Assembly: GCA_965645245.1 (NCBI GenBank)
Contig: OZ287084.1
Coordinates: 558,001 to 622,000 of the forward strand
From: Massalongia carnosa
Lineage: Eukaryota
Reading direction: 5' to 3'
DNA: 64,000 nt
Below the pieces are notes generated by a model. That model was not told the DNA's origin and made no database searches. It saw nothing but the letters and a program-made list of their open reading frames with translations. Of the stretch, positions 1,498 through 34,371 are shown piece after piece; the stretch's first letter is position 1; the number at the start of each line of letters is the position of its first letter. The position numbers and the translations under genes were made by a program.

Positions 1498-4494
1498 ATG
1501 TCTGGACGTAAGGATTTTCTAAGCCAACCGGCACCTGAGAACTACGTTGCTGGTCTTGGTCGAGGCGCTACCGGATTTACTACTCGATCGGATCTAGGGC
1601 CAGCCAGAGAAGGACCCAGCGAGGATCAAATCAAAGAAGCTCTTGCAAAACGCGCGCAACAGCTTGGAGCTGCTCCACCAACTGCTTACGGCGCAACAGA
1701 GAAGAAGGAAGATAATGACGATGACGATGAACGGTTTCAAGATCCGGAAAACGAGGTCGGGCTATTCGCAAATGGCGCCTACGATAGGGATGATGATGAG
1801 GCGGATAGGATATACCAGGAGGTAGACGAGAAGATGGATAGGCGACGGAAGATAAGAAGGTTGGTTTTCCCTTTTCCTCTCCCCAAGCCCACCTCGTTAG
1901 TAAAGCATATGGTTTATCATATACCCGGGCATTGGATGAACAGATTACCGACTTGAAACCGTTCGATACGTATAGGGAAGCACGTGAAGCTCAGGAGCGA
2001 AAGGAGTACGAGGCCAATAACCCGAAGATCCAACAGCAGTTCGCCGACTTAAAGAGAAGTCTCGCCAGTGTCTCCGACGAAGACTGGGCAAACATACCTG
2101 AGGTCGGAGATCTTACGGGAAAGAACAGGCGTACAAAGCAGAACCAACGGCAAAGATTCTACGCTGTTCCAGACAGCGTAATTGCCGGAGCACGAGATTC
2201 TACCCAGTTTGATACAAGCGTAACAGATGACGGCTCTCAGGCAAATGGATCAGGTGCAGATAACATGGATGGTACGATGACGAATTTTGCAGATATTGGT
2301 GCTGCGCGGGACAAGGTCTTGCAAGTTAGACTTGACCAAGCTGCCTTAGGATCAGGCTCGGATTCTACAGCGGGTACCTCCACGAATATTGATCCCAAGG
2401 GATATCTGACTAGTTTATCAAAATCTGAGATCAAATCAGGCGAGGCCGAGGTTGGCGACATACAACGAGTCCGAGTTCTTCTCGAGTCTGTAATCAAGAC
2501 AAATCCGAAACATGCCCCCGGTTGGATTGCTGCGGCAAGACTCGAAGAAGTTGCTGGGAAGATTGTGGCTGCAAGAAACGTCATCGCTAGGGGCTGCGAA
2601 GTCTGCCCTAAAAGTGAAGACGCCTGGCTGGAGAATATCCGACTGAACGACAACCACAACGCCAAAATCATTGCGGCTAGAGCTATTATGAACAATGATC
2701 GATCTACGAGATTATGGATTGAAGCCATGAAATTGGAAACTGATCCGCGAGCGAAGAAAAGGGTTCTGCGTCGTGCGTTAGATATCATGAAAACTTCCGT
2801 GGCAATCTGGAAGGAAGCTGTCAACTTGGAGGAAGATCCTGCTGATGCCAGGTTATTACTTGCCAAAGCCACCGAGGAGATACCGTTATCGGCTGAGCTG
2901 TGGCTTGCCCTCGCGCGACTTGAGACCCCTGAGCAAGCTCAAAAGGTGCTCAACAAAGCTCGTAAGGCAATCCCTACTAGTTATGAAATTTGGATAGCCG
3001 CCGCAAGGTTACAAGAACAGATGGGAAATGCCAACAAAGTCAACGTTATGAAACGTGCGGTCCAATCACTTGCTCAGGAATCTGCCATGTTAAAGCGGGA
3101 AGAGTGGATATCAGAAGCTGAAAAGTGCGAGGACGAAAGAGCCATCCTTACCTGCGGAGCAATAATTCGAGAAACACTTGGCTATGGCTTAGATGAAGAC
3201 GATGACCGTAAAGAAATCTGGATGGACGACGCAAAATCGAGCATTGGAAGGGGTAAATACGAGACCGCGAGAGCTATATATGCCTATGCTCTTCGAGTCT
3301 TTATTAATAAGAAATCCATCTGGCTGGCAGCTGCTGACCTGGAGAAAAACCATGGCACTAAAGAAGCGCTCTGGCAGCTACTGGAAAAGGCTGTAGAGGC
3401 CTGTCCCCAAAGCGAAGTTCTTTGGATGCAGCTTGCCAAGGAGAAATGGCAATCTGGGGAGATCGACGACGCCCGCCGTGTGCTCGGTAAAGCCTTTAAC
3501 CAAAATCCCAACAACGAAGATATTTGGCTCGCAGCGGTCAAACTCGAGGCCGATAACCAGCAAACGGCGCAGGCTCGGGAGCTGCTCCAAACCGCGCGCC
3601 AAGAAGCGGGTACTGATCGCGTGTGGATCAAAAGCGTGGCCTTTGAGCGGCAACTCGGCAATGTGGTCGCCGCACTCGACCTCGTCACCCAGGCGCTACA
3701 GATATACCCTAACGCGGACAAGCTGTGGATGATGAAAGGCCAGATCTACGAGGCCGAAAACAAGCTCTTGCAGGCGCGGGAGGCCTACAACACCGGCACC
3801 CGCGTGTGCCCCCAATCGGTGCCGCTCTGGCTGCTCGCCTCTCGGCTCGAAGAAAAAGCCGGGGTGGTGGTCAAAGCCCGCTCAGTACTCGACCGTGCAC
3901 GCCTGGCAGTGCCCAAGAACGCGGCGCTCTGGACCGAGAGCGTGCGTGTAGAGCGGCGCGCCCGTAACGTAGCGCAGGCCAAGAATCTGATGGCCAAGGC
4001 GCTGCAGGAGGTTCCCGACTCGGGCCTGCTATGGAGTGAAAGCATCTGGCACCTGGAGCCTCGTACGCAGCGAAAGCCGCGCAGCCTAGAGGCCATCCGC
4101 AAGGTGGACAATGACCCTACGCTCTTCGTCACCGTGGCGCGCGTGTTCTGGGGCGAGCGCCGCTTGGATAAGGCGTCGAGCTGGTTTGAGAAGGCGATTT
4201 TGCTGGACGCCGACTTGGGCGATACGTGGGCGTGGTACTTGAAGTTTTTGAGCCAGCATGGAACGGATGTGAGTTTCTTAGAAGCTTTTGGCTCGGTCAC
4301 CCCTCATCTGTTACGTTTCAGCTCGCTGACTGTTCCCTTTGCCACCGCAGGAAAAACGCGAAGATGTCGTCTCCAAATGCGTGCTCAGCGAGCCCAAGCA
4401 TGGCGAAGTCTGGCAGGCTGTGGCCAAGGACCCCAAGAATGCGCACAAGAGCACCGAGGAGGTTTTAAAAACGGTGGCGGCGTTGCTGGAGTGA
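1498..4494 (+). CDS. PRP6: U4/U6.U5 tri-snRNP pre-mRNA splicing factor Prp6 (S. pombe Prp1), HAT/TPR repeats
   Basis: Exons 1498-1859, 1976-4268 and 4351-4494. N-terminal PAPENYVAGLGRGATGFTTRSDLGPA, then NPKIQQQFADLKRSL, DPKGYLTSL, TNPKHAPGWIAAARLEE and many HAT repeats. C-terminal EPKHGEVWQAVAKDPKN is followed by TGA. Confidence 0.97.
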
Positions 4495-29219: not shown

Positions 29220-30852
29220 TTTTCTGCAACCGACGGGGTATCGATAACAGGCCCTGTCCGATTCTCGATTTGGAGAGTATGCAATGCACACACACGCATA
29301 AATGCCGGCCCGCAAGTCTCGATTGTGTTCCCTTGATGCCTTGAGCTAACACGCAAGCACTTGTCATCCGCTTTCGGACATGATATCTGCACGGTTGTAA
29401 ATAATTTATTCGTAGATGTGACCAGTCCAGCAGATCTGAGTGTAACGCCAGGCACCACGCGGGATGTTTTAGCCTCCTCCTATACCTTCTTGGCATACAG
29501 GGATGAAAAGTCTATCGCTGAGAAGATCTCAAAAACCCAGAGCGAGCGCTAATCTTGTCCCTAACGTAGAGACCAAATCCTATACAGTCCTGAAATCTGT
29601 CACAAGCGGGAACAGGATATTTCCCAAAAACTCCATATAAAGCGCAAATCCACGAGGTAACACGCAGAAGTCTCGTAATGTTCCTTATACACCTATTCTT
29701 TCAACGGCAAGTTATCAGGCTGAACCTTCGCTGTGGTCCTGCCACACCATCTCAAATGGTTGTGAATTCCGTACGTACTGCAGCGAGGCCGCCAAAGCGT
29801 AAAATATAACTTCGTTTCCAATTTAAATGGGAGTGAGGATCCGCTCTCTTCGGTCCTAGCTAGAGCAGCTTCGCTTTTAACAGAGTATACCGTAAACGTC
29901 GCGTACAAGAGCGTCTTGCTGAGATGTCGAGATTAAGGTTACGTTGTCAATAAGAGATGGTTGGCGCCTGAACGAGACCGATCGAGAAGGTGAGCGTGCA
30001 GGTTGCTCAAGAGTCCAGGCAGGTACAAGGTCAACTGAACATTAATCACCAATTCCTCCTGGCAGGAGATGAATAAAGCCTATGCCGCAGGGAGGCCGTT
30101 ATGCATGATGATGTTGATGATCAATCACGTTACACGATACGCAGGATGCACAGGCTCTGCCACAGCTATGCCAGAGTCGGACTGTCAGCAGATGGGCTTG
30201 TTCACGATGGGTATGATCCTGCCTTAGCCACAAGCTATGAGTCGAAGTAGCCCAGCTATGATGGCAAATGTCGATTGTGGCACGAGGAGAGAGGTATTGG
30301 ACGAGGGAGATGTGTTATGTGGTCAAGTAAGTTTTCCGTTCCTCGTTCCTCTCTATTAAGGCGCACGTCCTATCCTAAGTTAGAGGTACGGGTAACCCCT
30401 ACCTAAGGTGTATCCTAGCGGCAGTAGAGCCGTACTTAGTATAGAATAAGGAGAGAAAATACAATCGACAACTCCTTCACGACAGAGATCCACTTTTCAT
30501 TACTCCATTATTAGAAAGGGTTTTGATGAAATAAGACAAATCCCAAATTCTTTTGCTGAATTTCGACACTTGCCTTAGGTAGCCAGCTGCTAAGGGGAAT
30601 GGGGGATGGGAAATCACGTAACAGTATTTTCTTCTAGACCAATCAGCCTCATCGTACAAAGTACCCCGCAAATCCACTCGAACCCCCTGGAGGCGCGTGG
30701 TTCCGACTAGCATAGATTTTGGTTTTCTTTTTTACTCGGCTTCGGAATTACGAAAATACTAGTGTCTGCATTTATGACTAATGAGAGCCCGAATTCGATA
30801 CACTAAGAGCCAATCATTTCAAAACGCTAAGAGCTGCGGTGGCCCCGTTTTT

Positions 30853-30904
30853 TCCTTTCATAATCCTTTCATAATCCTTTCATAATCCTTTCATAATCCT
30901 TTCA
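30853..30904. repeat. 11-bp tandem repeat (TCCTTTCATAA) x ~4.7
   Basis: Four exact units plus TCCTTTCA, read directly. The array ends 42 bp before the transposon's left end. Confidence 0.95.
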
Positions 30905-30946
30905 CTATTCACTTAAACGTTCAGGGCAAAAAAGCTGGTGAGGGGG

Positions 30947-31054
30947 CACGCGGGTGAAAAAAAAAGGGCAAGGTGAGCCGAAACTCCCCAACCAAAACTT
31001 ACCCCTTTTCTTCCCCTTTTTCTTCCCCGTCTTCTTCCTCATTCAACATTTCAA
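30947..31054 (+). repeat. Left terminal inverted repeat of the Tc1-like element
   Basis: Reverse-complement match to 32184-32289 with a few substitutions and homopolymer-length differences. It ends immediately before the transposase ATG at 31055. Confidence 0.92.
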
Positions 31055-32148
31055 ATGCCATCCCACTACGATACACCTCAAAAGGCCAAGGTGCAGGGAG
31101 CTTATGAATTTCTTCTTGCAAAAGGCATTTCCATCGATCCTCGAGAGATTTTCAGCATTTTGGCATTCGAAGCGAGAGACAGGGCTATAAGATCATTCGA
31201 AACGGAGCATCTTCTAGAAGAAGACATCATTCAACGCTCGTTGAGACACGCGGTCGCAAATCAAAAGTCACGGAAGCACAAATACAGGAGGCAGATCACA
31301 TTCTACAAGATGAGGGGCTACAGTTGGAAGGAAAACGATACACATGGGAACAATTGGCTATGGAGATTGGGGCCGACGTTGTCGGTCGTACAATGCACAA
31401 TGTTATGTCGGCTGCTCTAAACTATGAGAAATGTCTGGCCTGCGTCAAGGGATGGCTGGCCGACCCACCTATGGAAAGACGGGTCGAATTTGCTCACATG
31501 ATGCTGACCAGATATCCCAAACCGGAGCAATGGGATCGCGTACGATTTAGTGATGAGATTCATTTTGGATATGGGCCGGAAGGACAGTTACGAATCATTC
31601 GTCAGCCCGGAACACGATATCGTTGGGATTGCATACAGCATCGTGACCCGCCTCCTGAGAAAGATCGAAAACGAAAACATTGCTGGGCTGCAATTGGCTA
31701 CAATTTCAAGTCGGATATTATCTTTTATGACGTGCCGGGCAACAGCAATGACAAAATGACTCATCAGGTGTATATTGAATCCGTTCTTGACCCCGTCGTC
31801 AAGCCCTGGCTGGAGCGTGGGGATGACTTCGTACTTGAAGAAGATGGAGACTCTGGTCATGGCACGGGCAAGACAAGAAATGCCGTCAAGAAATGGAAGG
31901 AAGGTCATCATTTAGAGCATTATTTCAATTGTGCCTCATCACCTGATTTGTCCCCTATAGAAAATTGCTGGCAGCCAGCGAAGCAGCATGTTCGAAAGTA
32001 TCCTCATTGGGACGATGTCAGCTTGAAGCAGCTGATTAGGGATGGATGGGAATGGGTGACGCAGGAATTCATCAATGAAAGAGTTCAATCAATGCCCAAA
32101 CGATTGGAAGAGGTAATTAGGGCTGAGAGGGCGATGACTGGCTATTGA
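31055..32148 (+). pseudogene. Tc1-like DDE transposase (DD38E), interrupted by a single 1-nt frameshift near 31149-31153
   Basis: Frame 1 reads MPSHYDTPQKAKVQGAYEFL..REIF. A second frame continues QHFGIRSERQGYKII..ETRGRKSK..YTWEQLA..VRFSDEIHF..LEEDGDSGHG..SSPDLSPIENCW..SMPKRLEEVIRAERAMTGY*. Restoring one base gives ~364 aa. Confidence 0.9.
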
Positions 32149-32183
32149 ATAGAATGTATGTAGAATTTCAATGGTCATACGAA

Positions 32184-32289
32184 TTGAAATGTTGAATGGG
32201 GAAGAAGATGGGGAAGAAAAAAGGGAAGAAAAGGGTGAGTTTTGGTGGGGGGATTTCGGCTCACCTTGCCCTTTTTTTTCACCCGCGTG
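32184..32289 (-). repeat. Right terminal inverted repeat of the Tc1-like element
   Basis: Reverse complement of 30947-31054. Confidence 0.92.
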
Positions 32290-32648
32290 GGGGGGCTAAC
32301 TATACTTAATGGACCCTGCATGGCTTCACCATCCCGTCAGATGAATTTCTTCTTCAAATCCTTCCAACTCCAATTTATCTTTCTTGAATCTAGCCCTTTT
32401 GGTATAAGATCTCATTCTTCTCTCCTCCGGCTTGCTTCTGCTCTCGAAACTCACGACCAGCAAAGCTATATTTTCCTCTTTACAAAATCGATAGACGAAC
32501 ATAATAACAACACTCATAATCAAGGTATCTTCGAGACAAAAACAACAAACGCCGGCCAACTTCAAGCCTCTCGATGGGTGATAAATTTCAAGCTTTTAAA
32601 TTTCAAGCTTTTATGTCCCCACTGGAGATCCCATGCAGTCTACTTTGC

Positions 32649-34371
32649 TTACTTGTTCCCCTTCGCCAGCCCATTTGTTGGCCCATTAGTCTTCCCTTTT
32701 AGTTCTGCCACTGCCAAGGCCTGACTCCTTTCTGCCGCGGGCATCTGTGCCAGCCAGCTTGGAGGGACAATGCCAGTCTGGTCATTAATGGTGCTAAGTA
32801 ATGGGGGAAGGCTCTGCAGGAGGTTGCGAATGGGTGCTGTGGAGTCAGAAGAGGCACCTTCGCCAGTGTTCCAAACGGTAATCTTTGGTTGCAGGCCATT
32901 GATTGCTGCTGCGTTGGCTTTAGCTAATTTCTCGTAAGTATTGCTTTGTAACATCATGTATTGAAGCAATCCTTGAGGCCCCCCAAGAACGTCAGACATA
33001 TGTCCGTATGCCTTGGCCATTTCCGTTATTGCTTCGGCCTCTTTCTTCTTTGAGTAAAAGTTTGCCTCTGCCTCTTTCGTAGCACGGATGAAGTGTGCCT
33101 CTGCCTCCTTGGTAGCGCGTATGAAGTTGGCTTCTACTTCCTGTTTTTCCTTGTATAGATTACCGTCAGCTCCTCGAGTGTCGCTATAAAATTGTGCATC
33201 GGACTTTTCTTGCGCTGACTCCTTCGCGATCCTGGCGGACACGAGATCTGTTGCTCTCCGCCTCTCTAGCTCCATTTCGGCTCTCTTTGTTTCTACTTCT
33301 CGTTGCAATTCTGCGTCTTTTGATTCGGCTTGTCGAGTTGCTTGAATATTGGCTAAGTTAATGCCCATGTTGAGCTTAGTTTGGGTCGTCGTAAGCCTAG
33401 AATGCACAAATCAGCCCAAAGGATAGATAAGTTTATGAATTGACGGATCATGGTCTGGCATATACGAAGCTGATGAAAGAAGGCAATTTGAAGATAATAG
33501 GAATGTGCAAAGAGATTCTTACTCAGCATCAGCTTCAGCCTTCTCACTCTTACGTTGAGTCTCGAGAACAGCCGTGAGTGCATCAATCTTGCTGATTTCT
33601 TGCCTAGCCCTCCCCCGCTTTTCAGCTTCCCCAATCTCGCCAATCATTCTCGCGTTAGCGACATCGACTTTCGCCTGGTTGGAAGCACCTTCGTGGGCTT
33701 TTCGGCTGAGAAATTTGAAGTATTCGCTCCCTGCTGTGTCTTGCAGCTCTTTCACATTGGCATTGTAGCTGGGACTTGGTTAGCCAAGGTCAAATGGAAG
33801 GCAGGCTCGAATTAACTTACATCCTCAGACCAAACTGGTTGAGCTCGCTCTGAACATTCTCAATAACTTTTGTCTTAAATACCTGGCGTTCCTTGAAGAT
33901 CTCTTCCATGGTCATTCCCGACACAATACTTCGGGTTTCACCCTCAATAATGCCCTTCACAATATCCTGCACATGGGTGCGGCCAGAGGTACCGTGATGT
34001 GCATCACCCTTTCCCGTAAGAATTTTGGCATAATTCTTGAGAGCGTCTGGCTCATCATCTGGACCGATGGTGAAGACAGCGGGTAACGCGAATTGAAGTT
34101 TTTCAATGGTCATGGCCTGAAGGGTGATTTCAAAGTCAAATGGACTAATCGAGATGATGCCATACTAAACGCCGATTAGCTCCAGCTGACATCGACGCTG
34201 ATGCTTTAGATATACATACCTTCTGCCCTGGAAAGACCCAGGCCTTCTTCGCTATCCTCACATCTTCAACACCCCAACCAGTAATGACCAGGTATGAGTT
34301 GGCATCGCTCACGTGATACCTATTTCCTCGTTAGGATGGGAGGATCCAATAGTGGGAAGGACCATGCACAT
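32649..34371 (-). CDS. Flotillin-like SPFH/Band-7 domain protein
   Basis: Exons (34371-34370), 34319-34220, 34164-33821, 33768-33523 and 33396-32649. Motifs: YHVSDANSYLVITGWG, QAMTIEKLQFALPAVFTIGP, IVKGIIEGETR, MTMEEIFKER, QFGLRIYNANVKELQD, a coiled-coil EA-rich region and INGLQPKITVWNTG. The first 2-nt exon is inferred. Confidence 0.92.

Follow-up and report, generated by a model that had tools for sequence, protein, structure and literature searches.

The duplication of a TA dinucleotide is used as a defining mark of Tc1/mariner transposons in classification and in annotation software. A locus described as a Tc1-like transposon lying between runs of G therefore raises the question of what its transposase duplicates on insertion. 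The element occupies 1343 bp, from 30947 to 32289, in the 64,000-nt stretch of DNA analysed here (the window), and direct reading of the window gives ends that are exactly CACG and CGTG. On the left the outer bases GGGGG (30942-30946) are followed by CACGCGGGTG from 30947, where the element starts. On the right the element closes with CACCCGCGTG, finishing at 32289, and GGGGGG adjoins at 32290-32295. TA is found next to neither terminus. This agrees with the preliminary description of the locus, in which the terminal inverted repeats had been traced out to CACG...CGTG with G-runs and no TA outside. The 36-nt terminal repeat string given there is found without mismatch at the right end (minus strand) and had no match in 100 shuffles.

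The two arms form an inverted repeat of about 108 nt with about 92% identity when aligned with gaps. The left arm (30947-31054, plus strand) starts with CACGCGG, which is followed by an A-run, and its first 37 nt are repeated almost perfectly in the right arm (32184-32289, minus strand); the terminal 36-37 nt of both arms are identical except for one extra A in the A-run of the left arm. The similarity stops exactly at 30947 and 32289, beyond which one arm continues with G and the other with C. Each inverted repeat also contains about 3.3 copies of a 12-nt C/T-rich unit (30998-31038 and 32195-32232). These units fall within the part that is conserved between both arms and may be candidate subterminal binding sites. 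Between the arms, at 31055-32148 on the plus strand, lies a transposase gene of the DDE_3 type that would comprise about 365 codons if intact. It is divided over two frames by one frameshift at 31145-31152 (plus strand), where a T is missing from a T-run. No second copy of the element lies within the 64-kb window. It is situated between minus-strand stop-to-stop open frames ending at 29511 and beginning at 32649, and from this position the copy is probably intergenic. No tRNA or structured RNA was detected near the element, three Rfam rows being far under their gathering scores.

The termini can also be read from other copies of the element. Parts of the stretch are contained in six of eight sequencing runs (a lichen metagenome and three organisms), and four public runs (X1, X2, X5 and X6) were compared over the element and the adjoining 1 kb to its left and right. 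The element has a summed contig depth about 20-30 times as great as its flanks in X1 and a still greater one in X2, depth here not being a copy number. Other copies are represented by contigs that diverge from the window sequence at 30947 (four in X1, five in X2), at 30945 (three in X5, one in X6) and, behind the right arm, at 32289 (two in X5). The breaks at 30947 and 32289 confirm the termini independently and leave the true ends where the arms place them. On the left, the termini of the other copies have GC, CC, GG and GG as adjoining consensus letters, and on the right CC, with no TA and no G-run; as agreement in this consensus is only 0.51-0.62, the flanks differ among copies. In the same and in related organisms, the element is thus present in multiple copies whose flanks vary. 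The window copy differs from the majority of copies by about nine private differences and one indel and is therefore young. X1 and X2 carry the same insertion, since their contigs extend over either junction and cover about 28-30 nt of the element; X2 may be the sample from which the window comes. An empty site had been proposed as a means of measuring the duplication; no allele joined across 30947-32289 was found in X1, X2, X5 or X6, the X5 pieces stopping short of the junctions. At the left end of the element (30949-31060) the summed depth is raised in both X1 and X2, in X1 to about 2.4 times the interior value, which may be due to double placement of the two arms or to truncated or miniature derivatives.

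The flanking DNA to the left has repeats of its own. About 130 nt from the element a 67-nt stretch (30753-30819) is itself repeated: contig depth is about 7-fold higher there in X1 and X2, and contigs of X1, X5 and X6 leave the window sequence on both sides of it. It gave no tRNA, no Rfam match and only a weak 22-nt second match within the window, and it may be a fragment or the end of another repeat family. Closer to the element, 30853-30904 consists of 4.7 perfect copies of an 11-nt tandem repeat. An X1 contig has 22 nt (two units) fewer at this position and a 9-nt gap at 30929, so the left flank is length-polymorphic between samples.

The length of the duplication was derived from related insertions. 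The terminal repeat pattern had no match in the metagenome collection and none in prokaryote genome contigs; a protein-based scan yielded 80 metagenome loci encoding relatives that are 32-64% identical. Inverted repeats were sought with a script in which the upstream DNA of each gene was aligned with the reverse-complemented DNA downstream of it. At 19 of the 80 loci there was no room at the contig end, which left 61 evaluable loci. A clear terminal inverted repeat (score of at least 44) was obtained in 30 of these, and the other 31, which scored under 44 and include many truncated copies, were not used. L044, with a different repeat round a truncated copy, and L031, with no right flank, were dropped, as were L003, L007 and L074, which duplicate the same insertion. 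The L044 locus (1740-3672) has its truncated transposase copy inside a 124-nt inverted repeat of another kind with palindromic flanks, and this copy may be nested in another element. The final set comprises 25 distinct related insertions, or 26 with the window, of which only one is a copy of the window's own subfamily readable with both flanks, the other 25 coming from the 32-64% identical relatives.

A perfect 5-bp direct repeat is present at the termini in 15 of the 26 insertions. One further case has a single mismatch in the 5-bp repeat (L065), one has a 6-bp repeat (L020), the pentamer is displaced by 1-3 nt in three (L004, L013 and L021), and no repeat is seen in six (L001, L006, L011, L023, L033 and L077). 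TA stands on both sides in none of the 26, so its absence from the window copy is a habit of the clade. For 10 of the 15 perfect cases the ends given by the script were left unadjusted. The other five were moved by hand to the family terminus, three by trimming a palindromic flank extension and two by shifting the end out to letters common to three copies of one element. All 15 pentamers differ in sequence, and two copies of one element carry different duplications (CCTCC in L028 and ACTGC in L060). Among the controls, one of 650 permuted pairs gave a match and none of 966 displaced comparisons did. With 5-bp repeats in 15 of 26 insertions and controls near zero, the clade makes 5-bp target-site duplications. 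A 2-bp G/C duplication was also considered and was rejected, the exact repeat length being five in the 15 cases. L011 and L077, two elements of different subgroups in which the 5-bp repeat is lacking, resemble each other in both flanks; it looks as if they sit in copies of another repeat or have been rearranged.

At the window copy the five bases before the left terminus are the same as the five after the right one (GGGGG, 32290-32294), the sixth G at 32295 being unduplicated flank. A comparison over six bases fails, with AGGGGG against GGGGGG. The pair thus fits a length of five and fails at six, which indicates insertion into a run of six G with duplication of five of them. The G-only duplication of up to 5 bp that had been proposed for this copy is therefore real and is 5 bp long, in line with the habit of the clade. 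The window copy is a slightly decayed one, with a duplication that is ordinary for its clade.

The longer frame of the transposase gene matches Pfam DDE_3 (E=5.4e-11, 43 bits versus a cut-off of 28.6), and P0001, an intact relative that is 97% identical, reads straight through the frame change of the window. An extra T behind 31148 is found at a depth of 574.3 of 574.3 in X1, 46895 of 58378 in X2 (8 contigs), 50 of 50 in X5 and 2.99 of 2.99 in X6. Since most other copies carry this additional T, the frame break is a private loss of one nucleotide from the T-run in the window copy. A word-indexed protein search returned 478 relatives, the named ones from Dothideomycetes, Leotiomycetes and Sordariomycetes, and in a profile search against clusters formed at 50% identity, E≤1e-30 was reached by 476 clusters, E≤1e-10 by 4267 and E≤1e-3 by 15128. 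The protein family is thus a large one, and it is fungal. DDE_3 was found in 13 of 13 aligned relatives and HTH_Tnp_Tc3_2 in five of the 13; the latter gave no match in the window's own broken N-terminus. In the model of a further relative, P0002, residues 13-125 are helical. The catalytic D, D and E do not vary among the 13 sequences compared, and the catalytic spacing in the clade is 38 residues. The sole sequence match in the PDB is the catalytic domain of Sleeping Beauty (5cr4, E=4.9e-8), and in this alignment four residues are inserted in the clade behind the second catalytic Asp. The AlphaFold model of P0002 (mean pLDDT 79.8) has Sleeping Beauty as its best fold match (E=1.1e-10, target TM 0.74), and its first 16 fold matches are Sleeping Beauty, Mos1 and SETMAR. 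The Tc1-like character claimed for the element in the preliminary description is borne out by the DDE_3 match, the Sleeping Beauty sequence match and the Tc1-type fold matches.

Elements that belong to the Tc1/mariner superfamily carry a single open reading frame between terminal inverted repeats in about 1.3-2.4 kb, and this organisation is found here, the 24 related elements measuring 1163-1754 bp. Insertion at TA with a 2-bp TA duplication, the other hallmark of the superfamily, is not what the 26 insertions show. Nor does the clade have the DD34E arrangement of the Tc1 family in the strict sense, given its 38 residues and the insertion relative to Sleeping Beauty. Judged by sequence and by predicted fold, the transposase is a Tc1/mariner-type homologue that is not canonical in its target-site behaviour.

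In view of the above, three other explanations of the G-flanks have to be considered. The preliminary description proposed that G/C homopolymer tracts may have become the target of this family, with G (or C) as the sole duplicated base, and that this could be a way of avoiding genes. The position of the window copy in a G6 run would agree with this, as would the alignments of four other copies in X5 and X6, which begin two bases earlier and have flanks that end in GG. The GC-richness of the duplicated pentamers also favours it, and this part of the proposed target bias stands: the 15 pentamers contain 75% G+C (56/75) versus 50% (226/450) in the 15 nt on either side (p=2.3e-5), or 51/70 when the window is left out (p=1.7e-4). 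A preference for homopolymers is not borne out, as the 15 sequences differ from each other and only four have a run of at least three G or C. The 11 without such a run include ACAAG, GTACG, AGTGC and CCTAC. G/C makes up 73-93% at pentamer positions 1, 2, 4 and 5 but only 40% at the centre, and the consensus of 13 other left junctions has no G-run and an agreement so low that these junctions must be varied. Beyond the pentamer, 14 of 15 cases have A or T as the second base on the left, and G/C accounts for 20-27% at the second and third bases on the right; over these 15 sites the pattern suggests a roughly palindromic target. Homopolymer targeting is already largely refuted by these data, and we consider it quite improbable.

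Somewhat less probable still is that the element is a normal TA-duplicating Tc1 transposon which lost its TA, or whose ends lie elsewhere, and that the G-runs are coincidental. The window holds only one copy and G-runs are not rare in its DNA, which leaves room for chance and decay. However, the contigs of other copies break exactly at the two termini, and all 48 ends of the 24 related elements have C as their first base, these ends being of the CACG, CAAG or CTCG type and continuing with an A-rich block from about base 11. The lack of TA on both sides in all 26 insertions, the contrast of 15 perfect 5-bp repeats with no match in the displaced control, and the few private differences of a young element likewise speak against it. 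The constant C also disposes of the suggestion that the terminal CA/TG represents a doubly mutated TA. A third explanation, which we regard as very improbable, places the element outside the Tc1/mariner lineage in a Transib-like superfamily, with a merely superficial likeness to Tc1. The 5-bp duplication, the GC-rich targets and the CAC-type termini followed by an A-rich block would be expected from such an origin. Against this, no RAG1/Transib family was matched in Pfam, and both the sequence match and the first 16 fold matches lead to Tc1/mariner-type proteins. Moreover, the protein of about 365 aa contrasts with the about 700 aa given for Transib in the available text of PMC1131882.

We therefore favor, with a probability of roughly 85%, the reading that the window feature is one of multiple copies of an ascomycete transposon (from a lichen sample), frameshifted and inserted recently, that its G-flanks are a normal 5-bp target-site duplication, and that the non-TA habit is clade-wide. 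In this fungal clade, down to 32% identity, the duplications are of 5 bp, vary in sequence and are rich in GC, and in no case is the element bordered by TA on both sides. In the corresponding mechanism the transposase would bind the conserved terminal 36 nt or so, composed of CACGCGG, a few bases and a GACAAAA-type A-run. The element would be excised at its C...G termini in a cut-and-paste reaction, and its two ends would be connected with the target strands at a distance of 5 bp instead of 2, the duplication then resulting when the gaps are repaired. At the window locus the element would have entered the run of six G, five of which were copied. The changed stagger and the lost TA requirement may be tied to a remodelled segment after the second catalytic Asp. 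In the clade this segment reads DGDSGHG plus four extra residues and is nearly invariant across 50 sequences; the corresponding segment of Sleeping Beauty is DNDPKH. The available text of PMC8934666 describes P247 and K248 of Sleeping Beauty as modelled beside the target DNA, with mutants that alter site choice. The P0002 model is least confident at this segment and at the loop between the first two catalytic residues. That a large fungal clade of Tc1-fold transposases has a 5-bp stagger, no need for TA, a GC-rich pentamer and A/T two bases outside, coinciding with a remodelled loop, appears to us as probable as its opposite.

For the window alone the result is modest, namely one slightly decayed copy with a clade-typical duplication. 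If the wider reading is true, a widespread fungal clade with 5-bp GC-rich duplications would be missed or misfiled under TA-based rules, and it would explain elements with terminal inverted repeats that TA-based annotation pipelines leave unclassified. The odds that the 5-bp non-TA habit of the clade is previously undescribed are about even, Repbase and Dfam lying outside the comparison. If undescribed, it amounts to an experiment of nature on the setting of target stagger by a DDE transposase. The clade offers a comparison that may reveal which parts of the transposase fix the strand-transfer distance and the TA requirement, a question of relevance to the engineering of target choice in Sleeping Beauty-type vectors.

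The closest known systems are the Tc1-type transposons such as Tc1 and Sleeping Beauty, with which the clade shares one open reading frame of about 365 aa between inverted repeats (1.2-1.75 kb in total in the clade), the DDE_3 catalytic domain and, in relatives, the Tc3-type helix-turn-helix. The clade differs in duplicating 5 bp of varied GC-rich sequence instead of TA and in its CACG/CAAG/CTCG-type termini. It also differs from Sleeping Beauty after the second Asp, where P-K is replaced by S-G together with the 4-residue insertion. Among fungal elements impala is an example of the Tc1 type. The available text of PMC7731502 also names impala as a fungal Tc1-type example, describes Intruder (DD38E) as mainly restricted to animals and gives TA as the insertion site of Tc1/mariner elements. 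Compared by description, Intruder has the same 38-residue catalytic spacing but is found mainly in animals and belongs to a superfamily described as inserting at TA, whereas the present clade is fungal and non-TA. TA is reported in the accessible parts of papers on fungal Tc1/mariner elements (PMC2836289, PMC3441728, PMC3227409), and non-TA integration by Sleeping Beauty is already known (PMC5801840, PMC7987939). The available portions of PMC11544213, bioRxiv 10.1101/2021.09.26.461848 and PMC5751038 contain nothing on a 5-bp or non-TA duplication. The miniature elements EFT-3m and EFT-27m of Epichloe are described in the accessible text of PMC3227409 as being of unknown superfamily, with ends that start with CTCC and an AT duplication. 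One subgroup of the clade (L011, L012, L020, L021 and L065) also starts with CTCC; since an AT duplication is reported for the Epichloe elements, a tie to the clade is only a lead.

The wider IS630-Tc1-mariner group includes other cases of non-TA duplications, namely Zator (3 bp), Tc4/Tc5 (TNA) and TBE1 (ANT). These elements are a precedent for a changed duplication length and target within the group, but their duplications are of 3 bp with an A/T core. To our knowledge no member of the group has a 5-bp GC-rich duplication. The placement of Zator in this group is given in the available text of PMC7386202. No Tc1/mariner or IS630 element with a 5-bp duplication was found in the literature, a search that had Repbase and Dfam outside its scope.

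An examination of the ends of the clade reveals a CAC-type heptamer, about three bases and an ACAAAA-type A-run. Together with the 5-bp duplication and the GC-rich targets, this motif recalls the ends of Transib and the V(D)J recombination signals. In the accessible text of Kapitonov and Jurka 2005 (PMC1131882), Transib is called the sole DNA-transposon superfamily of eukaryotes that has 5-bp duplications, and its sites are GC-rich. The similarity to Transib, in duplication length, GC-rich targets and CAC-type termini, is one of behaviour only. No RAG1 chain was present among the fold matches listed (E up to about 0.008), and the RAG1-like transposase of Transib is unrelated to the shorter Tc1-fold protein of the clade. 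Because the proteins are unrelated, the likeness to Transib and to V(D)J signals is probably a matter of convergence or chance.
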